16,404 nt of DNA from a virus (Duplodnaviria > Heunggongvirae > Uroviricota > Caudoviricetes), in the IMG/VR virus record IMGVR_UViG_3300047567_000058, positions 1 through 16,404 of that record; one strand, given 5' to 3'. Position numbers and translations under genes: made by a program. Shown here one piece after another: positions 1 to 15,454 of this stretch. Each line of letters starts with the position of its first letter. Within the stretch, counting starts at the first letter, position 1. The notes below the pieces were generated by a model that saw only the letters and a program-made list of their open reading frames with translations, was not told the origin of the DNA and searched no databases.

Positions 1-1641
1 TTAGCCGATCTCAGCTCTGACGAACACGGCGTCGAATCCGGCTGTCGGGATGATCCCTCCGCATGAGATGGTATTTCTCACTTTGGCTAGATCGAAATCC
101 TCGATCTCGGTTCCATAATGATCCAGTTTGTTTTTGCTGGTCACCGTGAATCTGGCCACGTCGATGTGATAGCCTTTTCCGAATCTGAGAATAAGCTGGT
201 ATTCTTTTGATTTGTCGTATGAGCTGCTGGAGACGCTGACGTCGATGTACAGGCCGATCTTGTCGATGCTTGACTTCTTGACGAATATGAAGTCTCTGTA
301 ATTAGACAGCGTTTCGTTGGGGACGTCAAGAACGTTTTCGGTAGGAATGGCGATGTACCCATTTGCGTCGAAGGTCTTTTTAAGGAAAGAAGACCCGACG
401 ATCTGAGCTTCTATCTGGTCGCCTTTGACGTCGGTCATCGGATTGCCGTCTTCGATGAGCCACGACGCGACCACGTTTGCCTTTTCCTTATCCTTGCGCT
501 TTCTGATGACGCCTGACTTATCGAATTTCAGTCCGTATATATGGCTGTATGCGGTATCGTCGTAGAATGGGAAGCCGCCGCCTGAGTCAGACTTGTCCTT
601 ATTGCTGTTTATGAAATTGACTTCGTCGCACAGCATGACGACGTCCGATGTTCTGATTATGTCTGAAGCGCGTTTTTCTTTCGACGCGGCGACGACGTCG
701 GACGCGGCGCTGATGATCTTGGCGTCTTTGCGTTTGAGATAGTCCTTCCCGAAATAGTACGTGAGGACTTCTTTGGTGCTTTCGCGGATGCCGTTTTCCC
801 TATCATTAGTATATGAGGAGGTGTCGTATGCGTTGTATTCAGAGAACATGACGAGCGGCCAATAAAGATAGCATCGATAGCTGCTGTTGCTGTATCTTTC
901 AGATGCAGCGGACATCGACCCTGCCTCAGAGAAGTCATGCGCCATGTTGGCGACCGTTACGTATAAGAAAGGCTTTGACTCGCAGGCGTACTTTTGTAGG
1001 TATCGTCTTGATACGCACGATCCGTTTCCAAGAGTGGAGATCGTATCGGCGATAGCGCTGTCAACCATGCTGGCGACGTCTTGGTTTCTGTCGTTCCAGC
1101 GATATAGATCAGCGATGCTTCCGCGGTTTCCTGTCAGCACCTGGCATCTATCGGAGTCAAAGCTAGTGTAAAGGTCTCTGGCTCTTATTTTGACGAGAAC
1201 GTCTTTCGACATGCCGCCGATCAGCATGCAGAACAGGTTGCGCGAGATCATCTCTCCGTCGTGCCCTCCGAACGAAAGCTTATCCGAGAACGATTCTATT
1301 TTATCGACGTCTTCGGTGTATTCCAAATCGTCTTGATTAGTGCTTTTGTTTTTGACGACCTTGCCGTATCTTATGAAGAACGTGTCTCCGCTCAATTGAG
1401 ATGTAAGGCTGGCTGCGTATATTTTGTCTTGGCTGCTGTCGTCTCCTTTGTACGTGAAGATGTCGTATCCAGACAGGAAGATGGTTGCCACTGGGCAATC
1501 GGCATGCTTTTTGAGCATGCCTTTTAAGTCGCAGTACCATCTGTCGATGATCTGAGAGACCAGTCTGTTGTTCTTGACGAAATCATCTGACGCCAATGCA
1601 TCGTTGAACTCTTTGGTCTCCTTTGCTTTCGCATCTATCAT
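1..1641 (-). CDS. Hypothetical protein, 546 aa
   Basis: Long ORF. ATG at 1641 is preceded by a strong SD (GGAAAGGAG, 7-nt spacer). TAA stop at 1-3. No family motif recognised. Confidence 0.85.
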   Translation of the reverse strand: MIDAKAKETKEFNDALASDDFVKNNRLVSQIIDRWYCDLKGMLKKHADCPVATIFLSGYDIFTYKGDDSSQDKIYAASLTSQLSGDTFFIRYGKVVKNKSTNQDDLEYTEDVDKIESFSDKLSFGGHDGEMISRNLFCMLIGGMSKDVLVKIRARDLYTSFDSDRCQVLTGNRGSIADLYRWNDRNQDVASMVDSAIADTISTLGNGSCVSRRYLQKYACESKPFLYVTVANMAHDFSEAGSMSAASERYSNSSYRCYLYWPLVMFSEYNAYDTSSYTNDRENGIRESTKEVLTYYFGKDYLKRKDAKIISAASDVVAASKEKRASDIIRTSDVVMLCDEVNFINSNKDKSDSGGGFPFYDDTAYSHIYGLKFDKSGVIRKRKDKEKANVVASWLIEDGNPMTDVKGDQIEAQIVGSSFLKKTFDANGYIAIPTENVLDVPNETLSNYRDFIFVKKSSIDKIGLYIDVSVSSSSYDKSKEYQLILRFGKGYHIDVARFTVTSKNKLDHYGTEIEDFDLAKVRNTISCGGIIPTAGFDAVFVRAEIG

Positions 1642-1662
1642 AACGATTCTCCTTTCCGGGAA

Positions 1663-2199
1663 TTATTTTTTAAATTCCTCAACGACGCAGCCTCTGTTGA
1701 GGACGAGGATGCTGTCGCAATCCCATCCATACAGTATCTGAGGCTGCCAATCATATGACCCCTTTGTCTTCTTGGACGGGGTCTCTTTGTATCCGAACAG
1801 ATCTTCGTCGAAATTGCTTTTGATGGCGACTATGGCATCATAATGCTGCTTGACGGATTCGAAGTCGATCCTGTCGCATTTGACGCCGATCAGATCATTG
1901 AAATAGCATCCTCCTTCGACGATGATGAACGGAGCTAGATCTGATTTTTTGTGGACGACCAGGACGTTGGACCCTTTGCGGATCCTGAATCTGAAAGACT
2001 CCGACAGCTGATCGACGCGGTAGTTCTCTTCGATGCACCATTCCTTCCATCCGGTTTTCCCTGACGAAGGAGTGCCCCAAAGCCCGCCGTGCGGCTTATG
2101 ATAGAACCAGCTGCTGAGATTCTTGACGTCATCGAATTTATGCGGATCGAAATGGTTCGATCCATAATGAACGAAAAGCATCTTGTCTGAATTTGGCAT
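1663..2199 (-). CDS. Conserved phage hypothetical protein, 178 aa (HYG...KPxGGLW...YGWDCDSIL type); possibly ADP-ribosyltransferase-like fold
   Basis: Start moved from 2283 to ATG 2199 (MPNSDK) because AAGGAG lies 7 nt upstream. Motifs VHYGSNHF, KPHGGLWGTP, GWKEWC, IDFE and LYGWDCDSILVLN resemble a small phage protein family I recall. The fold assignment is inference only. Confidence 0.8.
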   Translation of the reverse strand: MPNSDKMLFVHYGSNHFDPHKFDDVKNLSSWFYHKPHGGLWGTPSSGKTGWKEWCIEENYRVDQLSESFRFRIRKGSNVLVVHKKSDLAPFIIVEGGCYFNDLIGVKCDRIDFESVKQHYDAIVAIKSNFDEDLFGYKETPSKKTKGSYDWQPQILYGWDCDSILVLNRGCVVEEFKK

Positions 2200-2285
2200 A
2201 ATGCGTCTCCTTGTGATTCTGACTAGCAAAAGTTTAAGCTTGCTAAAAGGCGAAGTCAATAGATGCTTCGCTCTTTGTCGCAAAA

Positions 2286-2293
2286 ATGATATA
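2286..2293 (-). promoter_or_regulatory. Candidate early-type phage promoter motif TATATCAT
   Basis: One mismatch to TATATTAT (exact copy at 11890-11897). Lies just downstream of a terminator and about 87 nt upstream of the 2199 start. Confidence 0.4.
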
Positions 2294-2311
2294 TTTCCTT
2301 GGCGAGTATTG

Positions 2312-2339
2312 AAAAGGGCGGACCTTTCGATCCGTCCTT
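2312..2339 (-). terminator. Intrinsic terminator after the 214-aa gene
   Basis: Minus strand GGACGGAUC-GAAA-GGUCCGCCC-UUUU: a 9-bp stem with one mismatch and one G-U pair, a GAAA loop and a U tract, starting a few nt after the TGA at 2344. Confidence 0.75.
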
Positions 2340-2343
2340 CTTG

Positions 2344-2988
2344 TCATTTTGATTCGGCTTCCGCTTTCTTGGCGGCTCTGGCTTGCTTTCGCTTTGCCGA
2401 CTTAAGCCCTTCGGTCACGATCGGGAATGAGTATCCTTCCGTGTAGTAGAGCCTATCAACTTCTTTGTAGAAATCCTGCAGCGGTATCTGCTTGATGACG
2501 AATTTGCGCTGATCTTCGGGAAGATGGCTTTCGGATTCGATGTCTTCCTGGGCTTCCTCATACGCTTCGAGCATGAGGGATTTCATGAAAACGGATTCGT
2601 CTTTGTAATATGTCTTCTCCGAATTGCGCCACTGCTTAGGCTTGAATTTGGTATCTCCTCCGGCAGCCACTCTTTCGGCGACGTCGTCTTCGTGCTTGGT
2701 AGGCTCTTTGAGCGAATTGATGAGCGACGTCTCTTTGACTCCATAGGCTTCTCCCAATTCGGCTCCGAGCTTGCTGATGCCCATGATTCTGGCAAGCCTC
2801 GGCGGAAGGGCGATTCCCGCGCACGGGAAGATGTCCCCTCTTGAATAATTGTCATGGCTACCTTGGGTGTTGTAGGAGAAGAATAGCCAGGCTTGGCGGG
2901 AAGCGTCGTCTCGCCATAGATAGTAGGTCCGGAAGTTGTCCCGGTCCAGCGTCTTGATGCGGATAGGCAGTTGTTTCTGATTCGGCAT
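2344..2988 (-). CDS. Hypothetical protein, 214 aa, with basic C-terminal tail
   Basis: ATG 2988 (MPNQKQ) has GAGG 8 nt upstream, so it is preferred over the TTG at 3015. Ends KSAKRKQARAAKKAEAESK. Confidence 0.85.
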   Translation of the reverse strand: MPNQKQLPIRIKTLDRDNFRTYYLWRDDASRQAWLFFSYNTQGSHDNYSRGDIFPCAGIALPPRLARIMGISKLGAELGEAYGVKETSLINSLKEPTKHEDDVAERVAAGGDTKFKPKQWRNSEKTYYKDESVFMKSLMLEAYEEAQEDIESESHLPEDQRKFVIKQIPLQDFYKEVDRLYYTEGYSFPIVTEGLKSAKRKQARAAKKAEAESK

Positions 2989-3038
2989 AGCGTTGCCTCT
3001 TTGCGTGCTTCTCAATCCGAGAAGCCGTGATGATAAAT

Positions 3039-3053
3039 ATAATTAATTGGTGG
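3039..3053 (-). promoter_or_regulatory. Variant copy of the late-promoter-like motif (CCACCAATTAATTAT)
   Basis: Matches CGAACAATTAATTAT (11959-11973) at 13 of 15 positions. Sense orientation, intergenic, upstream of the 2988 start. Confidence 0.5.
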
Positions 3054-3068
3054 CGCTGTTCTGCAGGA

Positions 3069-3455
3069 TTAGATTTTGTCGTCTACTCGAATGCTTGATG
3101 GCTGAAGGCCCCATATGCCGTATCCGCAATGGCTCATCGCCTCGATGAAATCTGGAAACGGCATGTCTAGCCTGAATCCGATCGGAAGCATTTCGGATCC
3201 GGAGATCTCAGACATATAGACAACGGTTTCTTTGTAGCCTGAACCAAATACCTGGATTATTCTGGATGGGTCGATCGTCACAAAAGAGTCGGCTTCTACG
3301 CATTTGACTGGGGTGTGCACGCTATAGCTCACGCAGCTGCCGTTGCTGCGCGATGGTGCGCAGAATGATTGAGGCGCCGCGGCGCATTCGATGCTTTCTG
3401 CTGGTATTTTGTAGATCTGAGAGATGGCCTTAGCCACTATTACTTTGTGTTCCAT
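3069..3455 (-). CDS. Hypothetical protein, 128 aa; possibly leaderless
   Basis: ORF fills the gap between a terminator and the next promoter-like motif. No SD is visible; TGaTATAGT ends 6 nt before the ATG. Confidence 0.75.
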   Translation of the reverse strand: MEHKVIVAKAISQIYKIPAESIECAAAPQSFCAPSRSNGSCVSYSVHTPVKCVEADSFVTIDPSRIIQVFGSGYKETVVYMSEISGSEMLPIGFRLDMPFPDFIEAMSHCGYGIWGLQPSSIRVDDKI

Positions 3456-3461
3456 ACAATG

Positions 3462-3470
3462 ACTATATCA
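3462..3470 (-). promoter_or_regulatory. Extended -10-like element TGATATAGT
   Basis: TGn followed by TATAGT (5/6 to TATAAT). The downstream TATAGTCAT 9-mer is identical to the one at 11884-11892. Confidence 0.45.
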
Positions 3471-3486
3471 TGTCTGCCAAGCGAAG

Positions 3487-3516
3487 AAAAGCCCGAACTT
3501 GATCGTCCGGGCTTTT
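3487..3516. terminator. Intrinsic terminator after the 451-aa gene, probably bidirectional
   Basis: AAAAGCCCGAAC-ttgatc-GTCCGGGCTTTT inverted repeat with A/T tracts on both sides, just after the TAA at 3521. Confidence 0.85.
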
Positions 3517-3520
3517 ATTT

Positions 3521-4876
3521 TTATTTTCCGGCTTCGGTCGAGACCGCTGGGGCTCCGCCGTCGCTGATGTAGGCGTTGGGGTCTGCCGGCGCGTCGTATC
3601 CGTTGCTCTTGCGGACCGAATACGTGCTCTTGGTTGCGAAATACCCATCAGGGAATCCCGCTACCGATCCGCCGTTGCCTGCGGCTTTCTTCTCCGCGGC
3701 GATGTCGGCGATGGTCTTGACTGGCTCTCCGGCGCACTTGCCGGTGTCGTCTTCGCATTCGTCCTCTTTGAGCTGTCTGCGCATGATCTTCGATTTGCAT
3801 GCGGAGGTCTTTCCGATGTTCTCGAGAAGGCGGGCGTATCCGGCATGGCCGACGTGGACCAATCCGCTGGCGTTGAGGGTTTCCAGGACGGTGATGGTCT
3901 TGATGGCATTCGCCAATGCGAGATCGGCGTTGTAGTCTTTGCCTTCGTCAAGCATATTGAGCGACTCTTTGAGCGAAAGGGCTTCGACTATTCCGCGTAC
4001 AGGGGCGTTCTTGGCATAGCTCTCGTTATGGACGGTGATTGTCGTTCCGCCGACGGTGACGCTGACGTCTTTTCCTTGCTGGGCGACGTCGGGCTGAGCC
4101 GCGGCTGCGTTGGGGTCTGCGACGTAATTGGGGTCGTAAGTGGCAGGATCGTCAGCCTGCGCTTGCTGCGCGGCTGCCGCGTCCTGAGCCGATTGCTGAT
4201 CGACGGCTTGCTGCTGGGCGAGCTGATCTTGCTGGGCTTTCTCGGCCGCGATGTCTTTGGCGGTCTTGATGTCATCGATGGCGGCGTTGATCTGATCGGC
4301 TTCTTTCTGATCGTTGGCGACGATGCCTGCGACGTTGTCGCGGACTCCGGCGCTGAGCGAATCGATTGCTTTGTTGACGTCTTCGTCATCTTGGAGGCTC
4401 ATGAGAAGCTTATCGTGGAGGCTCTTGTCTTCCATGAGGATTCCTTCTGATTTCTCAGGGGCGGCTTTGCGGATTCCTTCGAGGATCACTTTGACTGCCG
4501 GAGAGAGATTGTCGGTGCTGACGGGGCCTTTGAATGCGTCGCAGATCGATTCGTAGATCTCGGTGACGTACTTCGGGTTTAGCTTGCTGTATTCGTCATG
4601 GTCAAGAGGAAGCGCGCGCGAGGCTGCCTCGGCCAATGCGAATTCGAGTCCTATTTCGGCGACGCGCCCGTCATATTGTGACTCAAGAACGGCGTTGCGC
4701 TTGGCGGCTAAGCGTCTTGCGACGGCGGCGTTCTGGGAGAATTTGGCGCTCTCGAAAATGGAATTATTTTCTTTTTTCTCCGCAGCATCGGCCTCACGGA
4801 GCTCGCGGTCTTTTATGCCTGCGATGGTCTCGAGTGTTTTATCGTATTGGGTTTTGCGCGGTCTGTATGCATCCAT
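3521..4876 (-). CDS. Probable virion (head/core) structural protein, 451 aa
   Basis: Start moved to ATG 4876 (MDAYRP): GGAGG lies 8 nt upstream and the promoter-like motif sits at 4915-4929, inside the longer ORF call. The protein has a Q/A/D/P low-complexity linker, nine [ILV]xE[ASG] motifs and a helical motif ALANAIKTITVLETLNASGL. Virion role is inferred from context. Confidence 0.7.
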   Translation of the reverse strand: MDAYRPRKTQYDKTLETIAGIKDRELREADAAEKKENNSIFESAKFSQNAAVARRLAAKRNAVLESQYDGRVAEIGLEFALAEAASRALPLDHDEYSKLNPKYVTEIYESICDAFKGPVSTDNLSPAVKVILEGIRKAAPEKSEGILMEDKSLHDKLLMSLQDDEDVNKAIDSLSAGVRDNVAGIVANDQKEADQINAAIDDIKTAKDIAAEKAQQDQLAQQQAVDQQSAQDAAAAQQAQADDPATYDPNYVADPNAAAAQPDVAQQGKDVSVTVGGTTITVHNESYAKNAPVRGIVEALSLKESLNMLDEGKDYNADLALANAIKTITVLETLNASGLVHVGHAGYARLLENIGKTSACKSKIMRRQLKEDECEDDTGKCAGEPVKTIADIAAEKKAAGNGGSVAGFPDGYFATKSTYSVRKSNGYDAPADPNAYISDGGAPAVSTEAGK

Positions 4877-4914
4877 CTGTGATGCCTCCGATGTCGAATG
4901 TCTTGCGAATTTCG

Positions 4915-4929
4915 ATAATATATTGTTCG
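4915..4929 (-). promoter_or_regulatory. Late-promoter-like motif CGAACAATATATTAT
   Basis: One of three near-identical copies and fits AACA-N6-TA. Predicted +1 at 4916, 40 nt before the ATG. Confidence 0.7.
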
Positions 4930-4947
4930 TCACTCGATTTTGCAGCA

Positions 4948-7863
4948 TCAATCAGCTTCGCTGAAGGTGATGTCGTTGTCAAGGTTAGCCGAATCGAGAT
5001 TGAAATACTCTTTAGGATACATCGATTTCTCGCTGTCCGTGAGCGACAATGCTTTGACGTATTGCGTGAACGTCCCATTGAGGCCCATGAAATCGATATG
5101 GTGTATCTGATCTGGGAAGGCGGCCGTCGTCAGCGCGATGACCTGCGACACTTTTAGCTCTCCGTTTGAGTTGGCGGAATCGACGAACATTCTTATGCAA
5201 TCGCGTATCTCGGATTGCAGCCCGGTTGAATCGGTGCTGTCGTAGTATCCGGAATTAAGCCAGATCTTAAGCTCGAGCCTGATGTTGGTGGTGGTCGTCC
5301 CATAGGTGTGAGCTCGGCCGTGCGTGTTGGCGAATTTGAGATCGAAGAAAGTGTTGGTTTCAAGTTTGCTCAAGCTGCTGCGGAGCATATTGATGTAAAT
5401 ATAAAGCTGCTTGATGAAATCATCATAGCTGGTTGTTCCATTGTAGAAGTACGATGAGTGAACGAGAGGAACGTCATCGATGACGAGATAGTTTATGGTT
5501 GACGGGGCCGTTGACAGATCCCAGCTGCTTCCGTTTCCTTTGACTATGAACGTGTTGCTGTCGATCGTTACTTTCTTATAAACACCTGACGTCGGGGTTA
5601 TGTCGGCTTCATCGGAATCGGTTAGCCATCCGCTTGAGAAAGCGGTGACGTTTGCCTTTGCCGTTGCGGCATCTGGGGCCGCGACTGTCGATTTGACTTC
5701 GATGTCTGACGAAATGATATCGTCAAGATTGCGGAATAGACCCATGTATTCATCCGATCTGCAGGCGATGCTGATTCCGCTTGAGCTGATTGATCCGGAG
5801 ATGTCTATCTCAGGCATGATGTCTTCGGCCAATTTGATGCTTCCGTCTGATCCGAGATTGATATAGCTTCCATAGGATCCTCCGGATTCCATTGAGAATT
5901 CTGAATCGGAATACACGGGAATGCTTGCTGTTATTGTCGTTGTGTAGACTGAGCTGTTCGTGCTCGATTGGGACGATTCGATCTTGTATGTTGATCCGGT
6001 CGCTCCGTTGCTGCTGTCTCCGAGGGCGATCGACACGTAAGAGTTGGCCGATGAGTACATCTTAAGCGCGATGGAGATATTGGAAGCGGAGTATTGGTTG
6101 GCGAAGTCGTAATTCCCAGAGAACGTGAACGCGAACTCATAGTTTGCCGATTTGATCATTCCGCCATAACTGTCTATGCTGAATCCTCTTTTTACGGAAA
6201 CTGAGTTAGGCGAGATCATGCCTGGGCCAAGCTTTGCCGCTGATCTAAATGAAAGAGACGACGTGTCATTCGTCATATCGTATATGTATTTGACCCGTTT
6301 GTATGGCGATAGCGTGACGTAAGCGTAGAAAGGCATGATGTAATAGTCTTTGTACGTGGCTATTCCGTTGCTTACGGACGACACCTGCGTTGCCGCATCA
6401 GACATTTTGTCCCCGAATTTGTATCCCTGAGAATATTCGGATGCTTCGACAACCGGATAAGTCGAATCGATTGAGAACCCAAGGGATTTCGGATTGGCGT
6501 AAACGACGTCTAGGGTGTCGGTAGGAATCGCCTCGGACACATATCCGCTTGACGCCGCGTTTCCGTCTCTGTCAAGCCCGGTTCTCATTTCGATCGACGC
6601 CGCGAAGACTCTTCTCAGGATATCGTCTCTCTTCTTCGCGAAGGTGATCGACCCTCCGTCTATGGTCTTGAGCATTTTCGTCAATTTGAGGAAGTAGGAG
6701 TTGAGATCGGATTCGGTGACGATCGTGTCGCGGGTCGATATTTCATCGATGATGGTGCTCTTGATCTCAGAGAGGGTAGGAGCGTCTGATCCGCCATATG
6801 ATTTTCCGTCGGTCATATAGGCGGAGACTGCGAGCTTTTTGAAAGTTTCGTCGGACGGGGTAAGAACGAGCTGGTCTGAATAAGACATGACGCCGGATGC
6901 CCCAAGCGTTGAATATGCGTCGAATTTAAGGGTGCATCCGGCAGTAGGAACGAACGATTCGCCGAACTTCACCTGGATCGTGTTGTTTCCAAGAATGCTG
7001 TAATACGCTCTGGCGTCGGTGCTGTCGGTGGAAGAAGTCGTCTCAAGATTGGTGTAATCGAGAGACACCTGGGTCGTTACCGATCCCTTAGTGCTGCTGA
7101 GCTGCATTCCGGCAAGCTGATTGGTGTAAGTGAATTCATGCACTTTGGTGCTGATGAACGATGACGAGGTGATCTGCTTCTTGGTTTCTTGCGTCTCGTA
7201 TTGATAAACCCTCACGACGAATCCGATCGACCCGTCGCTCGTCTTGGTGATTCTGATGAACGGGCTGTTGTACGTGCCATAAGACGTTGAGGTCTGCTCA
7301 GTCGATACGTATTTGGCGACGTAATCGTTTCCGGACTCCTGGGATCCTTTATAGATCATGACGGATCTTTCGAGCGAGAATTTGACGCTGCCTGCGATGA
7401 ACGGGTCTTTTCTGTTGAGCACGATGACTCGGCCGTAATTGCTGTCTCCGACGACCGACGTCACGTCGCTTCCGTAATCCGCGAACTTCGCGGACGACAT
7501 CGCCACCGATCCGTCTCCGAGGTAATTGTCGAGGACGTCGCTGCTGATCATGACCGTTATATCGGCGTATGCCGGAGTGGCGTATCCGACTTCGATGTTG
7601 AACATCTTGGCCCAGTTATACACGGATTTCGGCATCGTCGCGGTATTGAGGAACGACTCCTTGTAGATCATCGAGCTGTGGATCGCCGAGTCTCTGGCGA
7701 TCATCGCCATGCTCTCGGTGACGTATCCGAACAGAGACGACTTAAGGAAGTCGGTCGTGTCGATGTCTGTCGGAAGCTCCTTCTCGGCGATTGCCAGGAG
7801 CTTGGCGTAGATGTCCGCCTTCGATGCCGATATGATGTTAGTCGATGATGTTGCGCTTGCCAT
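4948..7863 (-). CDS. Baseplate wedge subunit, T4 gp6-like / Baseplate-J superfamily, 971 aa
   Basis: N-terminal YKESFLNTATMPKSVYNWAKMFNIEVGYATPAYADIT and central GGSDAPTLSEIKSTIIDEISTRDTIVTESDLNSYF parallel the gp6 motifs ESF..TA....SV...A.......A and GG.D.E....I.......T..R.VT..DY. GAGG SD upstream. Confidence 0.8.
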   Translation of the reverse strand: MASATSSTNIISASKADIYAKLLAIAEKELPTDIDTTDFLKSSLFGYVTESMAMIARDSAIHSSMIYKESFLNTATMPKSVYNWAKMFNIEVGYATPAYADITVMISSDVLDNYLGDGSVAMSSAKFADYGSDVTSVVGDSNYGRVIVLNRKDPFIAGSVKFSLERSVMIYKGSQESGNDYVAKYVSTEQTSTSYGTYNSPFIRITKTSDGSIGFVVRVYQYETQETKKQITSSSFISTKVHEFTYTNQLAGMQLSSTKGSVTTQVSLDYTNLETTSSTDSTDARAYYSILGNNTIQVKFGESFVPTAGCTLKFDAYSTLGASGVMSYSDQLVLTPSDETFKKLAVSAYMTDGKSYGGSDAPTLSEIKSTIIDEISTRDTIVTESDLNSYFLKLTKMLKTIDGGSITFAKKRDDILRRVFAASIEMRTGLDRDGNAASSGYVSEAIPTDTLDVVYANPKSLGFSIDSTYPVVEASEYSQGYKFGDKMSDAATQVSSVSNGIATYKDYYIMPFYAYVTLSPYKRVKYIYDMTNDTSSLSFRSAAKLGPGMISPNSVSVKRGFSIDSYGGMIKSANYEFAFTFSGNYDFANQYSASNISIALKMYSSANSYVSIALGDSSNGATGSTYKIESSQSSTNSSVYTTTITASIPVYSDSEFSMESGGSYGSYINLGSDGSIKLAEDIMPEIDISGSISSSGISIACRSDEYMGLFRNLDDIISSDIEVKSTVAAPDAATAKANVTAFSSGWLTDSDEADITPTSGVYKKVTIDSNTFIVKGNGSSWDLSTAPSTINYLVIDDVPLVHSSYFYNGTTSYDDFIKQLYIYINMLRSSLSKLETNTFFDLKFANTHGRAHTYGTTTTNIRLELKIWLNSGYYDSTDSTGLQSEIRDCIRMFVDSANSNGELKVSQVIALTTAAFPDQIHHIDFMGLNGTFTQYVKALSLTDSEKSMYPKEYFNLDSANLDNDITFSEAD

Positions 7864-7883
7864 AAGATTATGTCCTCGCAGGA

Positions 7884-7900
7884 TTTATTTTTATTTTCCG
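7884..7900 (-). repeat. 17-nt element CGGAAAATAAAAATAAA, exact second copy at 3514-3530
   Basis: Plus-strand TTTATTTTTATTTTCCG occurs at both 3514-3530 and 7884-7900. An 11-nt partial copy (CGGAAAATAAA) is on the plus strand at 15406-15416. Confidence 0.8.
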
Positions 7901-7907
7901 AAGGCGG

Positions 7908-9101
7908 TCACGACTCCAACGGGCTCTTCCAGAACGAATCGTAATCTATCAGGCCGTCCGTGTTGTTTCCGGTGACGCTCTTGATCACGGATGACGCCAT
8001 CGTCGATCTGCCGAACGAAAGCTCGAAATGCGCAGGGATCGCGTCGCTGTTAGACGATTTGACGTCCGACGCGTTCTTTTTTGGAACCCTGAACACGATA
8101 GGATCTCGTTTGGCTGAGTTGATGACTGCCATCAATCCGCTGTTTTGCGAGAGGGCTTTCTCAGACAGAAGCGGGCTTGTCGATCCGGCGATGTATTCGC
8201 CGCTTCCGCTGTCGTCTTCCGATGCGGCGCTCGACGAGTCGTCCCAGCAATCGGCGACTCTCAGGGAAACTTTGTTGAAGTCTTCGAGTATGCGCGGGCT
8301 GAGATCCTCTTTGACGGTGTAAGCCATCTGGACGGTTATGTTCTGAGGCGAGCCGTCCCCTCTTGAATACGACAGCGCCGAATAAGGGATCGACGTCGGG
8401 TAGCATCCGGTGTATTTGCACCAGTATTTCAACGTCTTTCCATCCGGATTCAGAACGAAATAGTATATCGATGACATGTAATCAAGCTGGCAGTTGCGCA
8501 CCATATCGGGGTTGGCGTCGAAGGTGCCGTTTGATATGTATGATATGTAATTTACCCATAGCGTCATTATCTTTATCATATCGAGATTGAGGGTGTCGGG
8601 CAGCATGCCGATGGCGATGTTCCCAGCGGCTTCCGATTGGGTTTTGGTTCCAGGCATCGGGATTCGGTATCCTTCTTTTGTGTTGAACGCGTCTTCGGTG
8701 TCGAGAGAGACATCCTGGGAATCGAACGTTATCGTGCGGTTGGTGAAGATCGGAAGGAACAGGGACTGAACGTCGGTGTATTCTTTGTATGAGAGCATCT
8801 TGGCGATGTATCCGTCCTCATCGTTTCCGCCTGATTCTTTTACCAGGAACTGCGCGAATTTAGGATCCTTCGTCATGTTTCCGTATGCGAGATAGTCTTT
8901 CCTGGAATCGGCGGCCGACGGCTTCGTTGGCAGAATGAACAGCATCGGCTTGGTCACGAATATGAACGCGCTTCCGCCTGGATGGTCATCGACGTATCGG
9001 TTGTCGAAATAGCCATTGAATCTGGACAGCTCTCTGAAGCCCGATGGATCCGAATTGGTGTTTACGAATAGGTCTGAGGTACTAATATTGTCGGAAGCCA
9101 T
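7908..9101 (-). CDS. Tail-tube-fold protein (T4 gp19/gp54/gp48-like; tube or baseplate tube initiator), 397 aa
   Basis: DYMSSIYYFVLNPDGKTLKYWCKYTGCYPTSIPYSALSYSRGDGSPQNITVQMAY parallels the gp19 C-terminal pattern (DGKT...Y.I.G..PT.V..L.......F.V...Y). Adjacent to the gp6-like gene. GAGG SD upstream. Confidence 0.7.
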   Translation of the reverse strand: MASDNISTSDLFVNTNSDPSGFRELSRFNGYFDNRYVDDHPGGSAFIFVTKPMLFILPTKPSAADSRKDYLAYGNMTKDPKFAQFLVKESGGNDEDGYIAKMLSYKEYTDVQSLFLPIFTNRTITFDSQDVSLDTEDAFNTKEGYRIPMPGTKTQSEAAGNIAIGMLPDTLNLDMIKIMTLWVNYISYISNGTFDANPDMVRNCQLDYMSSIYYFVLNPDGKTLKYWCKYTGCYPTSIPYSALSYSRGDGSPQNITVQMAYTVKEDLSPRILEDFNKVSLRVADCWDDSSSAASEDDSGSGEYIAGSTSPLLSEKALSQNSGLMAVINSAKRDPIVFRVPKKNASDVKSSNSDAIPAHFELSFGRSTMASSVIKSVTGNNTDGLIDYDSFWKSPLES

Positions 9102-9124
9102 CGATCATGCCTCTTGAATTTTGC

Positions 9125-9139
9125 ATAATCAATTGTTCG
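9125..9139 (-). promoter_or_regulatory. Late-promoter-like motif CGAACAATTGATTAT
   Basis: Fits AACA-N6-TA. Lies downstream of the 9166-9198 terminator; predicted +1 at 9126, 25 nt before ATG 9101. Confidence 0.7.
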
Positions 9140-9165
9140 AGGGCCTTTTCCGCATACGAGTTGGC

Positions 9166-9198
9166 AAAAAAAAAGAAACCGGATCGGCGGTTTCTTTT
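9166..9198 (-). terminator. Intrinsic terminator ending the small-gene cassette
   Basis: Minus strand AAAAGAAACCG-ccgatc-CGGTTTCTTTT followed by further Ts; overlaps the TAA at 9197. Confidence 0.85.
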
Positions 9199-9874
9199 AG
9201 ATAGACGCTTGGACGATGGCGGAGTCGATGAACGCTTTTATCTTGACGTCGTCGCAATCGAATCTGGATGGATCGAATCCGTCTCCTGAGGCGTTTTTGA
9301 TGATGAGATCTGATGCCTTTTTGATGGCGTTCATCAGAGCGCCTTTTTCAGGCTTTTTGCTGCGGAACGTGATGTCCAGATCCTTGTCTTTGTTGACGTC
9401 TCCGATATATATGATGCTGTTTTCGATATCCTGATATTTGTCGCTTGGCGGAAGCAAGATTATCCCAGGATTGCTTGAATCTGCGCATACGACGAACTCG
9501 ACTCTGGCGTAGTATTCTTCGTTATAGTAGCTAACGCGGATGACCACGGATATGTTGTTTCTCAGCATGCCGTTTACGCAGCATCCGAGATCATCGAGGT
9601 AAACGGGTTTGCTTTCCCATAGCTGATGCATCTCTCTTGCCGAGAAATACTGAAAGAAGGCATGCCCTCGGAAGCCGGATCTCGTGAACCCGATTATCTT
9701 GTTGGTGCTTGCCTCGACGTACATCTTTCCAGACACCCCGTATTTGCGCAGATCGACGTTTTTGTTTTTCGTTTCGCCTCTGCGGGCATCCATGGACGCG
9801 ATGAGCTGATACGTCTTTCCGCTGATGTCGCTTGAGCCTTCGGTCCCGTCGCTTTTGATATCTTTCGAAGTCAT
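9197..9874 (-). CDS. Hypothetical protein, 225 aa
   Basis: ORF whose start overlaps the upstream stop (ATGA, 9871-9874), consistent with translational coupling. Confidence 0.8.
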   Translation of the reverse strand: MTSKDIKSDGTEGSSDISGKTYQLIASMDARRGETKNKNVDLRKYGVSGKMYVEASTNKIIGFTRSGFRGHAFFQYFSAREMHQLWESKPVYLDDLGCCVNGMLRNNISVVIRVSYYNEEYYARVEFVVCADSSNPGIILLPPSDKYQDIENSIIYIGDVNKDKDLDITFRSKKPEKGALMNAIKKASDLIIKNASGDGFDPSRFDCDDVKIKAFIDSAIVQASI

Positions 9875-10125
9875 AGCGATCTATCGGAGATCTTGACGAC
9901 TCCGACCCCAGGGACGATCGCGCAGCAACTAGCCCGTCTGATCTGCTTGACGGAATTGGCAACTTTTGCGAAATTGGCGTCTTCTACCGATAGCTCGATC
10001 TTGCCATCAGACGGCTCCGTGATTTTGCTGACGAGATCGTTTGGGATGTTCTTCTTGATCTCGGGCTTGGCCTGGTCGTCGTCAGGAAGAAACGTGATGA
10101 TGATTGACTTTAGCGTCGTATTCAT
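9871..10125 (-). CDS. Hypothetical protein, 84 aa
   Basis: Start moved to ATG 10125 (MNTTLK) because AAGGAGG lies 7 nt upstream. Confidence 0.8.
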   Translation of the reverse strand: MNTTLKSIIITFLPDDDQAKPEIKKNIPNDLVSKITEPSDGKIELSVEDANFAKVANSVKQIRRASCCAIVPGVGVVKISDRSL

Positions 10126-10147
10126 ATACATGCCTCCTTGGTGCATT

Positions 10148-10921
10148 TTAGACCATTGCGTCTAATTTGATGCTGCTTGCGCATTCAGGCATAGCGTCGC
10201 AGAGCGCGCTGACTATTCTATGCTTGGAGATGTTGATCAGCTTCGCTTTGACGAGCTTATGCCATTTCTGATTATCCGGCGTGTTAGCTCTGGATCGTTG
10301 GCTGCCTCTGTATTCGCAGTCGTCATAGACGAAGATGTTGAACTCGTAAAGTATGGTCGATCCGCTTTCGGATATCGCCGTGTCGCATTCGCTCATATAG
10401 CCATCGGGGCGCTCGCCGTTCGGGTCGTAAAATATTTTTATTTTCGACGCCAGGCTTCCGCCTAGTGCGAATTTGCAGGATATCAAGGTATCCGTATAAT
10501 TTATGATCATTCCATAATGGCTGTTGTTTTTGATGATCGCGCCATAGTATTTTTCAACGCGATAGGATTCGTATAATTTCGATTTGTTGATTGAGACTTC
10601 CGAGATGCTGATTTTGGCAGGCATATCGGCGGCGGCCTTTATTCCGGCCGTCTTGGATAGCTCTCGCCCGTTCCAGCCCATCTTCGATCTGCTGAGGATA
10701 AGCAGCACCGGCTTCGTCTGGGTGGCTTTAAGCGGATTCTTCAGAAGGTAGGCGATCTCGCAGCGCCGCTTATACATTATCACGCTAGCCGGGAAGTAGT
10801 CTTCTTGAATGTTGGCGTTTGATATGATTCGGCTCGACAGGTCTTCCAAAGACGTCCTTCTTTGATTGAAGGACGTGTTCGCTATGGAGTTTTCCTGGCT
10901 GACTGTTAAATCATCCGACAT
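10148..10921 (-). CDS. Hypothetical protein, 257 aa
   Basis: Tightly packed ORF within the operon, 6 nt after the DUF4314 stop, with AAAGGAAG upstream. Confidence 0.8.
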   Translation of the reverse strand: MSDDLTVSQENSIANTSFNQRRTSLEDLSSRIISNANIQEDYFPASVIMYKRRCEIAYLLKNPLKATQTKPVLLILSRSKMGWNGRELSKTAGIKAAADMPAKISISEVSINKSKLYESYRVEKYYGAIIKNNSHYGMIINYTDTLISCKFALGGSLASKIKIFYDPNGERPDGYMSECDTAISESGSTILYEFNIFVYDDCEYRGSQRSRANTPDNQKWHKLVKAKLINISKHRIVSALCDAMPECASSIKLDAMV

Positions 10922-10927
10922 GGCGGC

Positions 10928-11152
10928 TCACTTCCTTTCGATTTCGAGGTGGAACGTGTCGATCTCTGGGAGGATTCCCAAGGACGACCCGTTGTCCCAA
11001 GCCACGAAGATGGTGCCTTCGTCGTCGACGTACTTGACCGTCCCGGCGGTTCCGTATGGAACCCTGTTTTGGTCGTGCATCGTCTCAATGACGACTCGGG
11101 TGCCGTGCTTGTATAGAGACCTGATGTCTGATATCTGTTTTGCGCTTAGCAT
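10928..11152 (-). CDS. DUF4314 domain protein, 74 aa
   Basis: YKHGTRVVIETMHD...VPYGTAGTVKYVDDEGTIFVAWDNGSSLGILPEIDTF matches the DUF4314 pattern GtRV.L..M.D....GT.GTV..VDD.G.I.V.WDNGssL. Confidence 0.85.
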   Translation of the reverse strand: MLSAKQISDIRSLYKHGTRVVIETMHDQNRVPYGTAGTVKYVDDEGTIFVAWDNGSSLGILPEIDTFHLEIERK

Positions 11153-11154
11153 AA

Positions 11155-11859
11155 CTAATTGTCCTTAAAGATCTTCGACGCGTCGTAAAGCGCGTCCGTC
11201 GGGATCTCATCCCAGAGAAGATCCATCGTGGCTTTCGGCCCGATGCTGTTGACGTAGACGCTCTTTCTGTCCGCGTCGGTGGTCTCTCCAGGGCACGCCA
11301 TAACCGCGGCGTTGTCGTCCGTGGTTTCGTCTCTCGAGATGATCGCTTTCTTCTTGGCCGAATTGAAATCTCCTTCGAATAGCCTGATCATCTTGATTGA
11401 TTTTCCGTAGATGTCCTTGATTCTATTCTGATCGACGAGCGCCGAAAGGAAATATCCTCTCGGGGCTTTGCCGTCTTTGCAGAATCTCTCAGGCACGTCA
11501 TTGTCTTCTTTTGAAAGATCGTATGACACGATGAGATCTCCTTTGTCGGTGATCATGAAATAGAACATCGGGCATCCGTCGTATACGGTATCGAGGAACG
11601 CGCAGCAAACCTTAGATGCGCCAAACATATCCGTTTTGACGCTTGAGGCGGTCTTGCATTCTGTGGCGAACTTGATGATCGAGTCGTATCTTTCCTTCTT
11701 CGGATCTACCACGGCTTTCTCAATTTGCTTGAGAACCTCCATCGGCATCTTGGTCGGAGAGTCAGGCATCGCGGCTAGCGTGGCCTCGGCTTCTTTGAAC
11801 TCCTTGAGCTGCTTCTTGGACGGAGCTTTGTCTGTGGATTTTCTAGAAAATTTAGACAT
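11155..11859 (-). CDS. Hypothetical protein, 234 aa; first gene of the small-gene cassette
   Basis: ORF with purine-rich upstream sequence (AAAGAAGG) and a TAG stop 2 nt before the next ATG. Confidence 0.8.
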   Translation of the reverse strand: MSKFSRKSTDKAPSKKQLKEFKEAEATLAAMPDSPTKMPMEVLKQIEKAVVDPKKERYDSIIKFATECKTASSVKTDMFGASKVCCAFLDTVYDGCPMFYFMITDKGDLIVSYDLSKEDNDVPERFCKDGKAPRGYFLSALVDQNRIKDIYGKSIKMIRLFEGDFNSAKKKAIISRDETTDDNAAVMACPGETTDADRKSVYVNSIGPKATMDLLWDEIPTDALYDASKIFKDN

Positions 11860-11883
11860 AATGTTTGTAACCTTCTTTCTTTC

Positions 11884-11897
11884 ATGACTATAATATA
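11884..11897 (-). promoter_or_regulatory. Candidate early-type phage promoter TATATTATAGTCAT
   Basis: Exact TATATTAT (11890-11897) about 30 nt upstream of ATG 11859. Resembles the TATATTAC/TATATTAT early motifs I recall for phiKZ/AR9. Confidence 0.5.
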
Positions 11898-11958
11898 TCC
11901 ATCAAACGGGGTTTGGATGCGTCAGGAAAAAGCCTTCTTCTCGGCATTCTTGGCATGG

Positions 11959-11973
11959 CGAACAATTAATTAT
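11959..11973 (+). promoter_or_regulatory. Late-promoter-like motif CGAACAATTAATTAT
   Basis: Fits AACA-N6-TA. Predicted +1 at 11972, 31 nt before ATG 12003. Confidence 0.7.
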
Positions 11974-12002
11974 CCATACTTCACAGATATTGAGGCACGC
12001 TA

Positions 12003-15000
12003 ATGGCAGACAAAAACATAGACGAAAGCGGAATCTTCAGCTCACTATTCAAAAGCAAAGAGACGTATCAGGACAAGATGAACAAGAAGCTTGGGTCTTA
12101 TGCCCCTGTTCCTAGCGATTCTTATTCAGGCAGCGGAAAGGGATTCGATCCCGATCTTGCTTCGCGCGACGAAGGAGAGGCCAGAAAGAGGCTTATCAGC
12201 GCATTGGGGATGGCGATGGGAGCCGGCTCCGTCAAGAGCATGGCCAACAGGGCGCTGAAGACTTTCCCGATCATCGTGTCGGACGATACTTCGGCTGACA
12301 CTGCCGTCATGATTAAGCGCGCTCTCGAAGAGCAATACGCCGAATACATCAACCTCATCGTGTCCAATCAAGTCGTTGATATTTCAGATTTGAAGCCAAC
12401 CTCGGTCGGAGGCAACATGGCCATGCAGGCGCTTGATCGCCTGACCGGGCCTGAATTCGGGACGAAGCGCATCGCGGCAAAGGCCGCGACCGGCGACCTT
12501 TCAACCGATGACGTCATGAGCAACAGCGCGGCGTATGCCCTTCTTAGAAAAGAATCGGCGATGCCGACTACCGGAGACGAATACGCGGATTCCCTTCTCG
12601 AGGGGGCGATCATAACGTCCAACGCCGATGAGGAAAGCGTCGCGGAAAAATTAATTTTATCCGAAGCCCTTTCCAAAGACGACAAGGATTCTCTCGTCGC
12701 TGAGGCTAAGCGCCTCGATGGCAACGCATTCGACGTCATCAAATATTATCGCAAAAACTCCAAAGTCGTCAAGATGATCGGAAGCATGAGCGACAGTGAG
12801 CGCAAGTCGGCTGTTCGCGCTCTTGACGCGGAGACAGACGGAGCCATCGACAAAGCGGATGACATCTTTAAGTCGGCTCGCGAGATGACTTATGGCGATG
12901 CGTATTCCGATCATGATATCTCCAGCGCGGTGTCGAAGCTGATCAGCGACGCCGGGATGATGCAGAATACTCTCACGTCTATCAAAGCCATCGTTTCTAC
13001 CACCATGAGCGAAGCGTCTTATCCGGCGGTCATTCCGTCAGAGAGATCAGGCGGATCGGTTCCTCCTTCTGGAGGAGCGTCGTTCAAGGCGTCGGCTGCG
13101 GCCGCGTCCGATCCTGAGGCTGCTTTGACAGCGTTATTCAATGGGCTTGAAGGATTGGCAGATGGCGTGTCTGATGATATCAACACGCTTAGAACAGTCA
13201 TTGCCAGAGCCGAAGTGTCTTCAGAAGAAGCCGATGACGAGTCCGGAGCCAGAGACACCGATTCGGCTATTCCGGATTCCATGAAAGGCGAGAAAGAGGA
13301 TTCTGACGTCCTCGGAAGCCTTGAGAACATGACTAACCTTAAGTTCGATCCTAATAAATTAAAAGTTTCCATGAATGACGACAACACCACGATCGGAAAG
13401 GTCATCGCCAACAACCCGTTCCTCAGAGACAGATACGAGAAAGCGTCTTACCTTCTTGTGTCTAATCGCATTTCAGGAAACGAATTCATCTCCTACTGCG
13501 TTGTCCGTCTTGGCATTCCTATGTCAAGATCCACCAGAGCGCAGCTCGTCATGCAATTCAAGTCGTCTGACATCATTACCGGATCATACGGAACCAAGAC
13601 CGTCACGCATAAGAGCGGAGACGTCGACATGACCGAATTCGGGCTTGTCGATAAAGACACCGCGAACAACATCGCGCGCAACAAGCTCATCTACACGAGA
13701 GCGATGACCGAGACGTTCAGACTCACCACCAAGCAAGCTTGGCAGATCGCCGGCGTCGGAGCTGCCGGAGCCACCGCCAGCGGATTGGCCGGATGGGGAA
13801 TCGGCGCTGCGGCCGGAGCTTCGGCTGCCGCTCTTCCTTGGGCAATCGCGCTTCCCGCCGTCATTGGCGGAGCGGCGTCTGCTGCTGCGATGTACGCCAT
13901 CATTCGCAATAAATGGGATTCCATGCCGCATTCTTCGACCGTTCACGACGATATCGAAGGATGGGAGCGCGTCGAGACTCTCATCAATCAGATGGACAAG
14001 AATCGCAAGCAGCTTTGGGATCTTGACCAAGAATACGCGTACAACACCGGATATCATATGGACAAGAACGGCGTCATCGATTATAAAGGCGGCAAGGATT
14101 CCAACGCGGCTTATCAGAAAGACAAGTATGCGTCTGAAGCCAAAGCGCTCAAAGACGCCCAGGATGATTTCTTCAAGAGCGTCAAAGGCCTTTACAACGT
14201 CACTCCGGCGTATACCCGCCCGGTACGCAATGAGGAATACTCCATGCATGAAGCCACCCTTCCTCATGCCAAAGCTTATAACAAATCGCTTTGCGAGGAT
14301 ATCTCAAAATCTCTGAAAGGATGCCGAGAATACATCGTTGAATCGGCATTGCTTAATGAGCGAGTCCTCAATACGAATATCAGACATAACACCTATACCT
14401 ATAACGTCAATCCTACCGATCAGGACGTTTCGCTCGTCCCTGAATTTGGGTCAAAAGGATTGCTGGCATACGGATCCGTCGAATACGACAAGAAAGATCT
14501 TCGCGATCGCAGATACAACGATCCGTTGGTCATGACCGTCAAATTCAACAGCCGCTTTAACGACGGCCGCACTTCGGATTCCAGCCTCACCGCAGTCATC
14601 GGGATTCTTGGCGTCATAACCAGGGTTCCGTCAGCGGAGATGGAATACGTCCTTAAGATGAACTCCGACAAGAATAAGGCTGTCAAAGGCGTGTTCTCAT
14701 CGGACGATGCCAAGCTTGGCAATCCTATCGCAGACGCGATCTCCGGAGCTTTCAAAGACGCTGATGACAGTGCCAAGAACCTTCCTAATTCCGGAGATCT
14801 CTGGAACAACCTCGAAAAGCTTTCCAATATCGCGGTGGCCAACAAGCTCGCCGGCAAACAGCTTGACAACGTTATCAACGCGCACATCGTCTTCTCGCAT
14901 AAGGAAGTCGAAGCCTGCAAGCAGGAAACCGGAGACGACTATGCCAAAGACGTGAAGCTGGCGATCAAGCTTATGCGCAGATACAGCGCTCTCTCAGTCA

Positions 15001-15161
15001 TGATCGCCGATGACGATCTGTATGGGGATGGAACGCTCATGATTTGCGACGATCCTGATGCCATCAGCTGGGATGTCGTCCCTTATTCGGCGTTCGAGAA
15101 TAGATCAATCGATGACAGAACGACCAAGCAGCTTTCTGCCATTGCTAAATTAGCGAGGTGA
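12003..15161 (+). CDS. Large probable virion (inner head/ejection-type) protein, 1052 aa
   Basis: GAGG SD upstream. The N-terminal FPIIVSDDTSADTAVMIKRALEEQYAEYINLIVS and C-terminal PLVMTVKF...AVIGILGVITRVPSAEM segments resemble, from memory, virion proteins of AR9/PBS1-like jumbo phages. A central Gly/Ala-rich hydrophobic stretch is present. Confidence 0.65.
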   Translation: MADKNIDESGIFSSLFKSKETYQDKMNKKLGSYAPVPSDSYSGSGKGFDPDLASRDEGEARKRLISALGMAMGAGSVKSMANRALKTFPIIVSDDTSADTAVMIKRALEEQYAEYINLIVSNQVVDISDLKPTSVGGNMAMQALDRLTGPEFGTKRIAAKAATGDLSTDDVMSNSAAYALLRKESAMPTTGDEYADSLLEGAIITSNADEESVAEKLILSEALSKDDKDSLVAEAKRLDGNAFDVIKYYRKNSKVVKMIGSMSDSERKSAVRALDAETDGAIDKADDIFKSAREMTYGDAYSDHDISSAVSKLISDAGMMQNTLTSIKAIVSTTMSEASYPAVIPSERSGGSVPPSGGASFKASAAAASDPEAALTALFNGLEGLADGVSDDINTLRTVIARAEVSSEEADDESGARDTDSAIPDSMKGEKEDSDVLGSLENMTNLKFDPNKLKVSMNDDNTTIGKVIANNPFLRDRYEKASYLLVSNRISGNEFISYCVVRLGIPMSRSTRAQLVMQFKSSDIITGSYGTKTVTHKSGDVDMTEFGLVDKDTANNIARNKLIYTRAMTETFRLTTKQAWQIAGVGAAGATASGLAGWGIGAAAGASAAALPWAIALPAVIGGAASAAAMYAIIRNKWDSMPHSSTVHDDIEGWERVETLINQMDKNRKQLWDLDQEYAYNTGYHMDKNGVIDYKGGKDSNAAYQKDKYASEAKALKDAQDDFFKSVKGLYNVTPAYTRPVRNEEYSMHEATLPHAKAYNKSLCEDISKSLKGCREYIVESALLNERVLNTNIRHNTYTYNVNPTDQDVSLVPEFGSKGLLAYGSVEYDKKDLRDRRYNDPLVMTVKFNSRFNDGRTSDSSLTAVIGILGVITRVPSAEMEYVLKMNSDKNKAVKGVFSSDDAKLGNPIADAISGAFKDADDSAKNLPNSGDLWNNLEKLSNIAVANKLAGKQLDNVINAHIVFSHKEVEACKQETGDDYAKDVKLAIKLMRRYSALSVMIADDDLYGDGTLMICDDPDAISWDVVPYSAFENRSIDDRTTKQLSAIAKLAR

Positions 15162-15166
15162 TGATC

Positions 15167-15415
15167 ATGGACAAAGAAGTTAAGAAGCCAGTCGGCGCGC
15201 ATGCCAAGGAAGTTCCCGACAGCAAGAATCCTAAGCTCTCGGATAAAGAGCTTGAGGCTCAGCGCAAAAAGTATCTCAAAGGCGATCCGAATTCGGTTCC
15301 TCTTGAAGGAGCCGAGTCTCTGATGATCAGCAGAGGATACGACCCGAATCTCATCACGTTCGAGGAATTCTGCATCGAAGAGGGAATCAACCCCGACGAT
15401 GTCCTCGGAAAATAA
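15167..15415 (+). CDS. Small acidic hypothetical protein, 82 aa
   Basis: GAGGTG lies 6 nt upstream of ATG 15167 (MDKEVK); alternative starts are 15158 and 15161. TAA stop. Confidence 0.75.
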   Translation: MDKEVKKPVGAHAKEVPDSKNPKLSDKELEAQRKKYLKGDPNSVPLEGAESLMISRGYDPNLITFEEFCIEEGINPDDVLGK

Positions 15416-15454
15416 ATATTTTATCGGCAATCATGAAAGGCGGAGGATGCAAAT

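Follow-up and report, generated by a model that had tools for sequence, protein, structure and literature searches.

A probable late promoter of the AR9 type, with a long and rigid consensus, in an uncultured jumbo phage

The 15-nucleotide element described here occurs in four intergenic copies in the window, that is, bases 1-16404 of a 201,011-bp virus record (IMGVR_UViG_3300047567_000058) with 50% GC (guanine plus cytosine) and an estimated completeness of 78%. Very probably, the element serves as the late promoter for a non-virion multisubunit RNA polymerase (nvRNAP) that the phage itself encodes, an enzyme of the kind known from Bacillus phage AR9. Its enrichment, its placement, its match to the AR9 late promoters, the enzyme that the phage encodes, the classes of genes behind it and its conservation in relatives together carry this assignment. 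The record represents an uncultured metagenomic jumbo phage from wastewater-type samples, whose nearest cultured relatives, judged from protein comparisons, are those of the AR9/PBS1 group. Coordinates prefixed G000 are those of the whole virus record; unprefixed coordinates are those of the window.

Copies of the element in the window

A pattern scan of the window locates CGAACAATNNATTAT exactly at three positions and CCACCAATTAATTAT, a variant of the 15-mer with two mismatches, at a fourth, in agreement with the three near-identical copies and one variant that an earlier note on this DNA had described. These four matches compare with 0.58 expected, and none of 200 shuffles reaches four. All four copies are intergenic and lie on the sense strand of the next gene. 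Reading of the flanks also bears out the placement given in that note, upstream of start codons led by a Shine-Dalgarno (SD) sequence, with 25-52 nt from the predicted start site (+1) to the ATG; the strong terminator that had been noted before one of the copies is likewise present. The sites and the genes around them are as follows.

4915..4929, minus strand: putative late promoter, exact motif; predicted +1 at 4916; 40-nt leader with a GGAGG SD before the ATG at 4876; gene 3521-4876
9125..9139, minus strand: putative late promoter, exact motif, with the terminator 9198-9171 upstream and the SD-led ATG at 9101 downstream; predicted +1 at 9126; leader 25 nt
11959..11973, plus strand: putative late promoter, exact motif in the divergent intergenic region 11860-12002; predicted +1 at 11972; leader 31 nt to the SD-led ATG at 12003; gene 12003-15161
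3039..3053, minus strand: doubtful variant, ACCA replacing AACA (-10 A to C) and C replacing G at -12; predicted +1 at 3040, 52 nt upstream of the SD-led ATG at 2988
9171..9198, minus strand: intrinsic terminator, 11-bp stem, 6-nt loop and T-run; closes the unit of genes 11859 to 9197, just before the 9125 promoter
7908..9101, minus strand: tail-tube-like virion protein (PF23971; phrog_21400), orthologue of AR9 g213
4948..7863, minus strand: 971-aa protein, orthologue of AR9 g212; without a motif of its own
12003..15161, plus strand: 1052-aa protein, orthologue of AR9 g214, a minor virion structural protein
3521..4876, minus strand: 451-aa protein of no known family, first gene behind the 4915 promoter

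The window is syntenic with AR9 g212 to g215, the gene from 15455 onwards matching g215. The promoter at 9125 probably drives the tail-tube-like gene and, by co-transcription, probably also the g212-like gene that follows it, while the copy at 4915 sits in the 71-nt gap between the stop of the latter at 4948 and the ATG at 4876. The 3039 variant is doubtful as a genuine promoter, and we think it more probably is not one, because a substitution at -10 abolishes transcription in AR9, because single mismatches, except for -6 T to C, are about as frequent as chance predicts, and because L022 (below), the closest relative, has no motif upstream of its homologous 221-aa gene. This site is the sole -10 variant in the genome.

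A rigid consensus across the genome

The earlier note had expected many copies of the motif in the full genome, and about 40 are found, nearly all of them just before genes. The 15-mer occurs in 15 exact and 8 one-mismatch copies, as compared with none for the reversed control pattern. Its core, AACAATNNATTAT, has 32 exact copies over the whole genome, where 0.2 would be expected, and 12 one-mismatch copies where 3.6 would be expected; two-mismatch copies are unenriched. Counted from the start site, the consensus reads A-11 A C A A (T/C) N N A T T A+1 T+2, with 11 nearly invariant positions compared with 6 in AR9. A position-wise scan for variants finds no other base at -11, -7, -3, -2, -1 or +2; +1 is G in a single copy, position -6 is T in 32 copies, C in 7 and A in 1, and the spacing is constant in all copies. 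Further upstream there are preferences only (G in 23/40 and C in 15/40 at -12, C in 21/40 at -13, and a leaning towards C at -15). The longer consensus proposed in the earlier note therefore holds in its additional invariant bases (A at -7, A at -3, T at -2 and T at +2), but its upstream CG is reduced to a preference. The bare AR9 consensus AACA-N6-T[AG] is present in 191 copies against about 196 expected; it is not enriched, and being at chance level it is useless as a search pattern in this genome.

From -10 to +2 the element is nearly palindromic, ACAAT-NN-ATTAT, and its direction is set by the -9/+1 pair, the sole break in the symmetry. Such a near-palindrome could also be bound by a regulator of late genes, activating or repressing and perhaps dimeric, with the polymerase starting elsewhere. 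We consider this improbable. The bases that make the element asymmetric (C at -9, A at +1 and A at -11) are invariant, the orientation always follows the downstream gene, and the perfectly symmetric form, ACAATNNATTGT, is absent from the genome. At a number of sites, moreover, the distance to the start codon is zero, which leaves no space for a separate promoter downstream, and the sequence coincides with a promoter class that needs only a five-subunit enzyme in vitro. As an observation on arrangement, four pairs of the predicted promoters stand back to back, 30-80 nt apart and in opposite directions (G000 130679/130750, 140886/140942, 114397/114429 and 184215/184296).

Placement before genes and the start site

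At 34 of the 39 strict sites, an ATG-led open reading frame (ORF) of at least 60 aa begins on the same strand 0-50 nt past the predicted +1, as compared with 22.6% of random positions (p = 1.8e-17). In eight cases the ATG coincides exactly with the predicted +1 (ATT-ATG) and opens ORFs of 105-558 aa; in four of these eight, no start codon precedes this ATG in the open frame. At three further sites the ATG lies at +3 or +4 and the leader would be 2-3 nt.

ATG at the predicted +1: G000 17452, 22980, 64277, 114398, 127908, 130680, 159661, 191441
Leader of 2-3 nt: G000 33292, 199581, 19150

The gene call for the tail-tube orthologue of L022 likewise starts at the ATG of ATTATG. The sites with ATG at +1 argue for a start at that A and against a start downstream of the motif, so that initiation at the A following the conserved T receives indirect support from the sequence. 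About a quarter of the motif-led genes would be made as leaderless or nearly leaderless mRNAs. Among the genes with ATG at +1 is a transposase-like gene at G000 191441-192787(+) (phrog_506, E 1.6e-45), under a predicted late promoter; it adjoins the gp226-like gene described below and faces away from it.

Match to the AR9 late promoter and its polymerase

Promoters of the AR9 late class are read on the template strand by a sigma-like protein that is unrelated in sequence to sigma factors. To our knowledge, AR9 is the only phage for which this class has been both mapped and reconstituted. The late promoters of AR9 and PBS1 are read by a five-subunit nvRNAP holoenzyme with gp226 (Lavysh 2017, PMC5312081; Sokolova 2017, PMC5449584; Fraser 2022, PMC9209446). 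In AR9, 94 late transcription start sites (TSSs) carry AACA-N6-TA/G, the last base being the TSS (PMC5312081, PMC5449584), and the form given in the earlier note, AACA-N6-TA with the last base as +1, is the same in both papers. Positions -11 to -8 and +1 are essential in vitro; the gp226 holoenzyme recognises the template strand and requires uracil at -11 and -10.

Comparison of the motif with AR9 late promoters shows both close agreement and distinct differences. The late matrix that we rebuilt from 93 AR9 sites has AACA fixed, T in 95% at -1, and A in 82% or G in 17% at +1. All six conserved positions (A-11 ACA-N6-T-1 A+1) are present in the 3/3 exact copies of the window and in the 39/39 strict copies of the genome; the 3039 variant fails at -10. 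Outside these positions the AR9 matrix has weak preferences (A in 59% at -7, A in 73% at -3, T in 54% at -2) and none at +2. The weak preferences at -7, -3 and -2 are invariants here, and only 4 of the 93 mapped AR9 promoters fit the long form of this phage. Placement is the same in the two phages, at a short distance before late, virion and virion-RNA polymerase (virion-RNAP) genes. Unlike in AR9, G at +1 is practically unused here, and a large number of transcripts would lack a leader; in AR9 the leaders are at least 26 nt long. The AR9 genome has 28% GC, as compared with 50% here.

The phage encodes homologues of all five subunits of the AR9 enzyme. Neither the window nor the RNAP locus matched any GenBank phage by megablast or blastn, and the AR9 group was reached only by searches at the protein level. 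With the beta-C protein as query, the best match is Bacillus phage AR9/PBS1 (36% identity, E 2e-122), followed by the Staphylococcus S6-like jumbo phages, Yersinia phiR1-37 and Listeria LPJP1. AR9 homologues were found for 49 ORFs in all. The search for split beta/beta' genes that the earlier note had called for yields two sets, and the search for an AR9 gp226-like specificity subunit yields a homologue as well. The nvRNAP genes are the following, the four core homologues matching AR9 with E from 1e-19 to 4e-127.

G000 100939-102522: nvRNAP g105 homologue
G000 104878-106977: nvRNAP g089 homologue, 36% identity, E 4e-127
G000 145559-147013: nvRNAP g270 homologue
G000 152165-153670: nvRNAP g154 homologue
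G000 189389-191000: gp226-like specificity subunit, frameshifted in this record

The second set corresponds to the virion RNAP (homologues of g189, g145, g264 and g078). Two of the polymerase genes are divided compared with their counterparts: the nvRNAP beta'-C subunit, a single gene in AR9 (g154), is represented by two adjacent ORFs (G000 152165-152815 and 152828-153670, minus strand), and the virion beta homologue (g189) by two ORFs at 27382-28581 and 29721-31196 of the whole record, near which lie homing-endonuclease-like genes (31234-31677 and 31772-32743).

The phiKZ system also has a phage-encoded split multisubunit RNAP with a fifth, sigma-like subunit (gp68) and a short promoter at the start site. 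Its late promoters, TATG with G as the TSS, differ in consensus from the motif described here, and the RNAP subunits of this phage are far closer to AR9 than to the phiKZ-type phages listed in the beta-C search (Erwinia, Salmonella; 36% against about 23% identity for beta-C).

By analogy with AR9, promoter recognition would proceed as follows. A four-piece split beta/beta' core together with the gp226-like, sigma-like subunit would melt the DNA, the holoenzyme would read the -11 to -8 block, probably on the template strand, and transcription would initiate at the A of the final TA. The pattern of conservation suggests that the additional invariant bases (-7, -6, -3, -2 and +2) may make further contacts that are specific to the enzyme of this clade.

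This kind of promoter is already known from AR9. The long consensus, and the subfamily of gp226 homologues with Arg or Lys at position 206 (below), are new; no account of either was found among the papers searched. A large and environmentally widespread clade very probably uses the AR9 promoter architecture with a much stricter consensus and an altered base-discriminating pocket. The motif offers a simple criterion by which late transcription units and leaderless genes of these phages can be annotated, and the compact and highly specific pair of promoter and polymerase is a candidate for an orthogonal expression system.

Classes of genes behind the element

Pfam and PHROGs searches of the window genes, and PHROGs searches of 20 other motif-led genes, assigned almost no functions, so the label of late genes rests on orthologues in AR9. 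The coordinates of the AR9 late TSSs, which had been mapped by differential RNA sequencing (PMC5312081), were taken from Table S3 of that paper together with the AR9 record. The earlier note's statement that the best copies precede virion genes agrees with this comparison: the copies at 9125 and 11959 stand before the orthologues of g213 and g214, and both of these AR9 genes have mapped late TSSs (that of g214 at 182012). Late TSSs are also mapped for g281, g114, g233, g242 and g261, whose homologues here come directly behind the motif. The motif lies 6-36 nt upstream of the homologues of g213, g214, g281, g114 and g165, and for the virion-RNAP homologues of g189, g145 and g078 it is found inside the same predicted unit.

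The same check covered 15 homologues of nvRNAP, replication and chaperonin genes: all five subunits of the nvRNAP, two genes for DNA polymerase, three for helicases, and those for SbcC, SbcD, primase, UvsX and GroEL. In 14 of these 15 cases the nearest sense copy upstream is 1.7-12 kb away, and the GroEL homologue has none.

These distributions bear directly on another reading, in which the motif is an early promoter of the injected virion RNAP and transcription starts a few bases downstream of it. The early promoter of AR9, AAATATATATTAT-N6-G, is of similar length and shares its last five bases, ATTAT, with the motif, and no clear early motif that would fill that role was identified in the genome. 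Still, we regard an early promoter as very unlikely. The motif is absent from the genes for the nvRNAP subunits and replication, which must be early, and present before virion and virion-RNAP genes, the opposite class to that served by AR9 early promoters. In its AACA block and spacing the motif agrees with the late class of AR9, while the early consensus has no such block and follows another rule for its start site. A start 6-7 nt downstream would remove the start codon at the eight sites whose ATG begins within the motif. Finally, the orthologous AR9 genes have mapped late TSSs.

Conservation in relatives

A pattern scan of IMG/VR with the tail-tube protein alone gave no relative; a protein database search with it reached at least 143 metagenomic homologues, on contigs of up to 340 kb. 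One assembly, of 219.3 kb, has a tail-tube protein identical to that of this phage. Four relatives were compared at the corresponding loci.

L022: protein identity 69%, GC 0.58
L023: protein identity 44%, GC 0.39
L024: protein identity 47%, GC 0.255
L045: protein identity 42%, GC 0.35

In 4/4 of these relatives, (G)AACAAT-NN-ATTAT(A) precedes the orthologues of all three window genes, that is, the tail-tube-like gene, the g214-like gene and the following gene of 400-630 aa, and it stands before other genes of these loci too. The motif survives at a divergence where the surrounding intergenic DNA can no longer be aligned. As it is kept at 25-58% GC, the long form is independent of base composition.

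The same conservation speaks to the possibility that the element is read by the host RNA polymerase with an alternative sigma factor of the host or with one encoded by the phage. A few good sigma70-like promoters elsewhere in the genome make some host transcription possible. The earlier note had stated that there is no sigma70 pair; this holds in that no -35/-10 pair overlaps any of the four sites in the window, but the copy at 11959 has a 10/12 match, TTGTAA-18-TATAAT, some 65 nt further upstream, at 11865-11894(+). Sigma70-like matches in the window as a whole are not clearly enriched (22 against 15.3 +/- 3.7). We hold recognition by the host enzyme to be highly improbable, with the motif unchanged in relatives of 25-58% GC, which presumably infect very different hosts, and with a cognate phage polymerase and its specificity subunit encoded in the genome.

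In L022, the pair of genes for 128-aa and 221-aa proteins (10324-11417) is inverted relative to the window, where it occupies 2344-3455. The L022 pair is preceded by an A/T island and a TAGAAT-type, -10-like box and not by the late motif.

Weighing of the assignment

Several observations weigh against a late promoter read by the nvRNAP, and they concern both the genes and the enzyme. The homologue of the major capsid protein (G000 171337-172881) has no strict copy; its unit has only the variant AACAACCAATTAC at G000 170450-170462(+), with C at +2, before the preceding ORF. The AR9 table lists no late TSS for three genes (g165, g112 and g227) whose homologues here are led by the motif. Conversely, four AR9 genes with late TSSs (g007, g016, g086 and g225) have homologues here without the motif; in AR9 these four have continuous expression, driven by a late promoter. 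A frameshift interrupts the gp226-like gene of this record, which is split into overlapping frames at G000 190020-191000 and 189389-190216, with an extra G after a CAG codon at about 190163 (L016:1490-1515). The residues of the AR9 pocket for the -10 uracil are, by alignment, not conserved. Lastly, we infer both the start sites and the late timing in this phage.

As to the frameshift, an intact 536-aa homologue of gp226 (P0123), identical over the matched region, is present on five other contigs, which argues that the break is an assembly error or a variant of the strain. The AACAACCAATTAC variant, for its part, lies within an unusually long (about 320 nt) and AT-richer non-coding stretch.

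The reader protein and the DNA base

The nature of the altered pocket can be described from an alignment of AR9 gp226 with 45 homologues of the clade. In the 2.1bis helix of AR9 gp226, a distance of 3.9 Å separates Val206 from C5 of the uracil at -10, and replacement by Gly (V206G) lets the enzyme accept thymine; Val206 was stated to be absolutely conserved among the gp226 homologues of deoxyuridine phages. Tyr210 of AR9 stacks on the G at -9. In the clade the alignment of this helix is well anchored (LYK..YSR upstream, with Trp208 and the Lys-Asn retained), and within it the position of Val206 is occupied by Arg in 37/45 homologues and by Lys in 8/45. The position of Ile207 has Phe (42) or Tyr (3), that of Tyr210 is non-aromatic (Ala, Thr, Val, Ile or Lys), and that of Phe261 has Asn. 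In the beta-N subunit, Arg363 is replaced by Lys and, probably, Lys375 by Thr. As the pocket is not conserved, the details of recognition cannot simply be copied from AR9. A 301-kb relative contig (L045/L046) has an Arg-type factor (P0161) together with long promoters, which argues that the long promoter form and the distinct gp226 subfamily go together.

Genes for ThyA, ThyX, dUTPase, dCMP deaminase and deoxynucleotidase (NT5C) were not found in the 201 kb, nor did AR9 Ugi give a tblastn match there, the record being about 78% complete. It is possible, if somewhat unlikely, that the clade reads gp226-type, template-strand promoters on DNA with thymine or otherwise modified DNA. Uracil would then have been lost as the mark that tells phage DNA from host DNA, with Arg or Lys in place of Val206, and specificity would have been regained by a doubling of promoter length. 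Were this so, the clade would have arrived in nature at what the V206G enzyme of AR9 is by engineering, and it would show a promoter code that depends on base modification becoming one that depends purely on sequence. The clade offers a natural experiment on promoter length versus base modification as the source of specificity.

Other promoter-like signals

No class of early promoter was identified genome-wide among three kinds of candidate: A/T islands, sigma70-like sites and ATATATYAT-type sites. Sites of the form TTGAC-17-TAnnnT number 15 against about 12 expected in the genome, and ATATATYAT-type sites 34 against about 25; neither is enriched. Sharply bounded islands of A and T only, GG-(A/T)15-17-CC, occur about 70 times in the genome; those of the window (about 3509-3529, 7879-7899 and 15407-15427) lie between genes or at their ends. 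The islands were rejected as early promoters, since they occur in both orientations, some after hairpins as the tails of terminators and some inside ORFs.

Very good sigma70-like promoters, with TTGACA-17-TAGAAT and TTGACC-17-TATCAT among them, stand right after an A/T island at G000 75399(-), 92856(-), 39360(-), 37796(-), 149479(-) and 109456(-). The genes behind them begin after 23-93 nt and include the homologues of DNA polymerase (g132) and UvsX; some early genes may use the host polymerase. In the window, ATATATTAT at 11890-11898(-) reproduces the final nine bases of the AR9 early-promoter consensus. It is separated by 30 nt from the ATG at 11859, where the minus-strand unit 11859 to 9197 begins. 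Comparable sites, each then followed by GAAAGAAGG, are present at G000 19086(-) and 167264(-).

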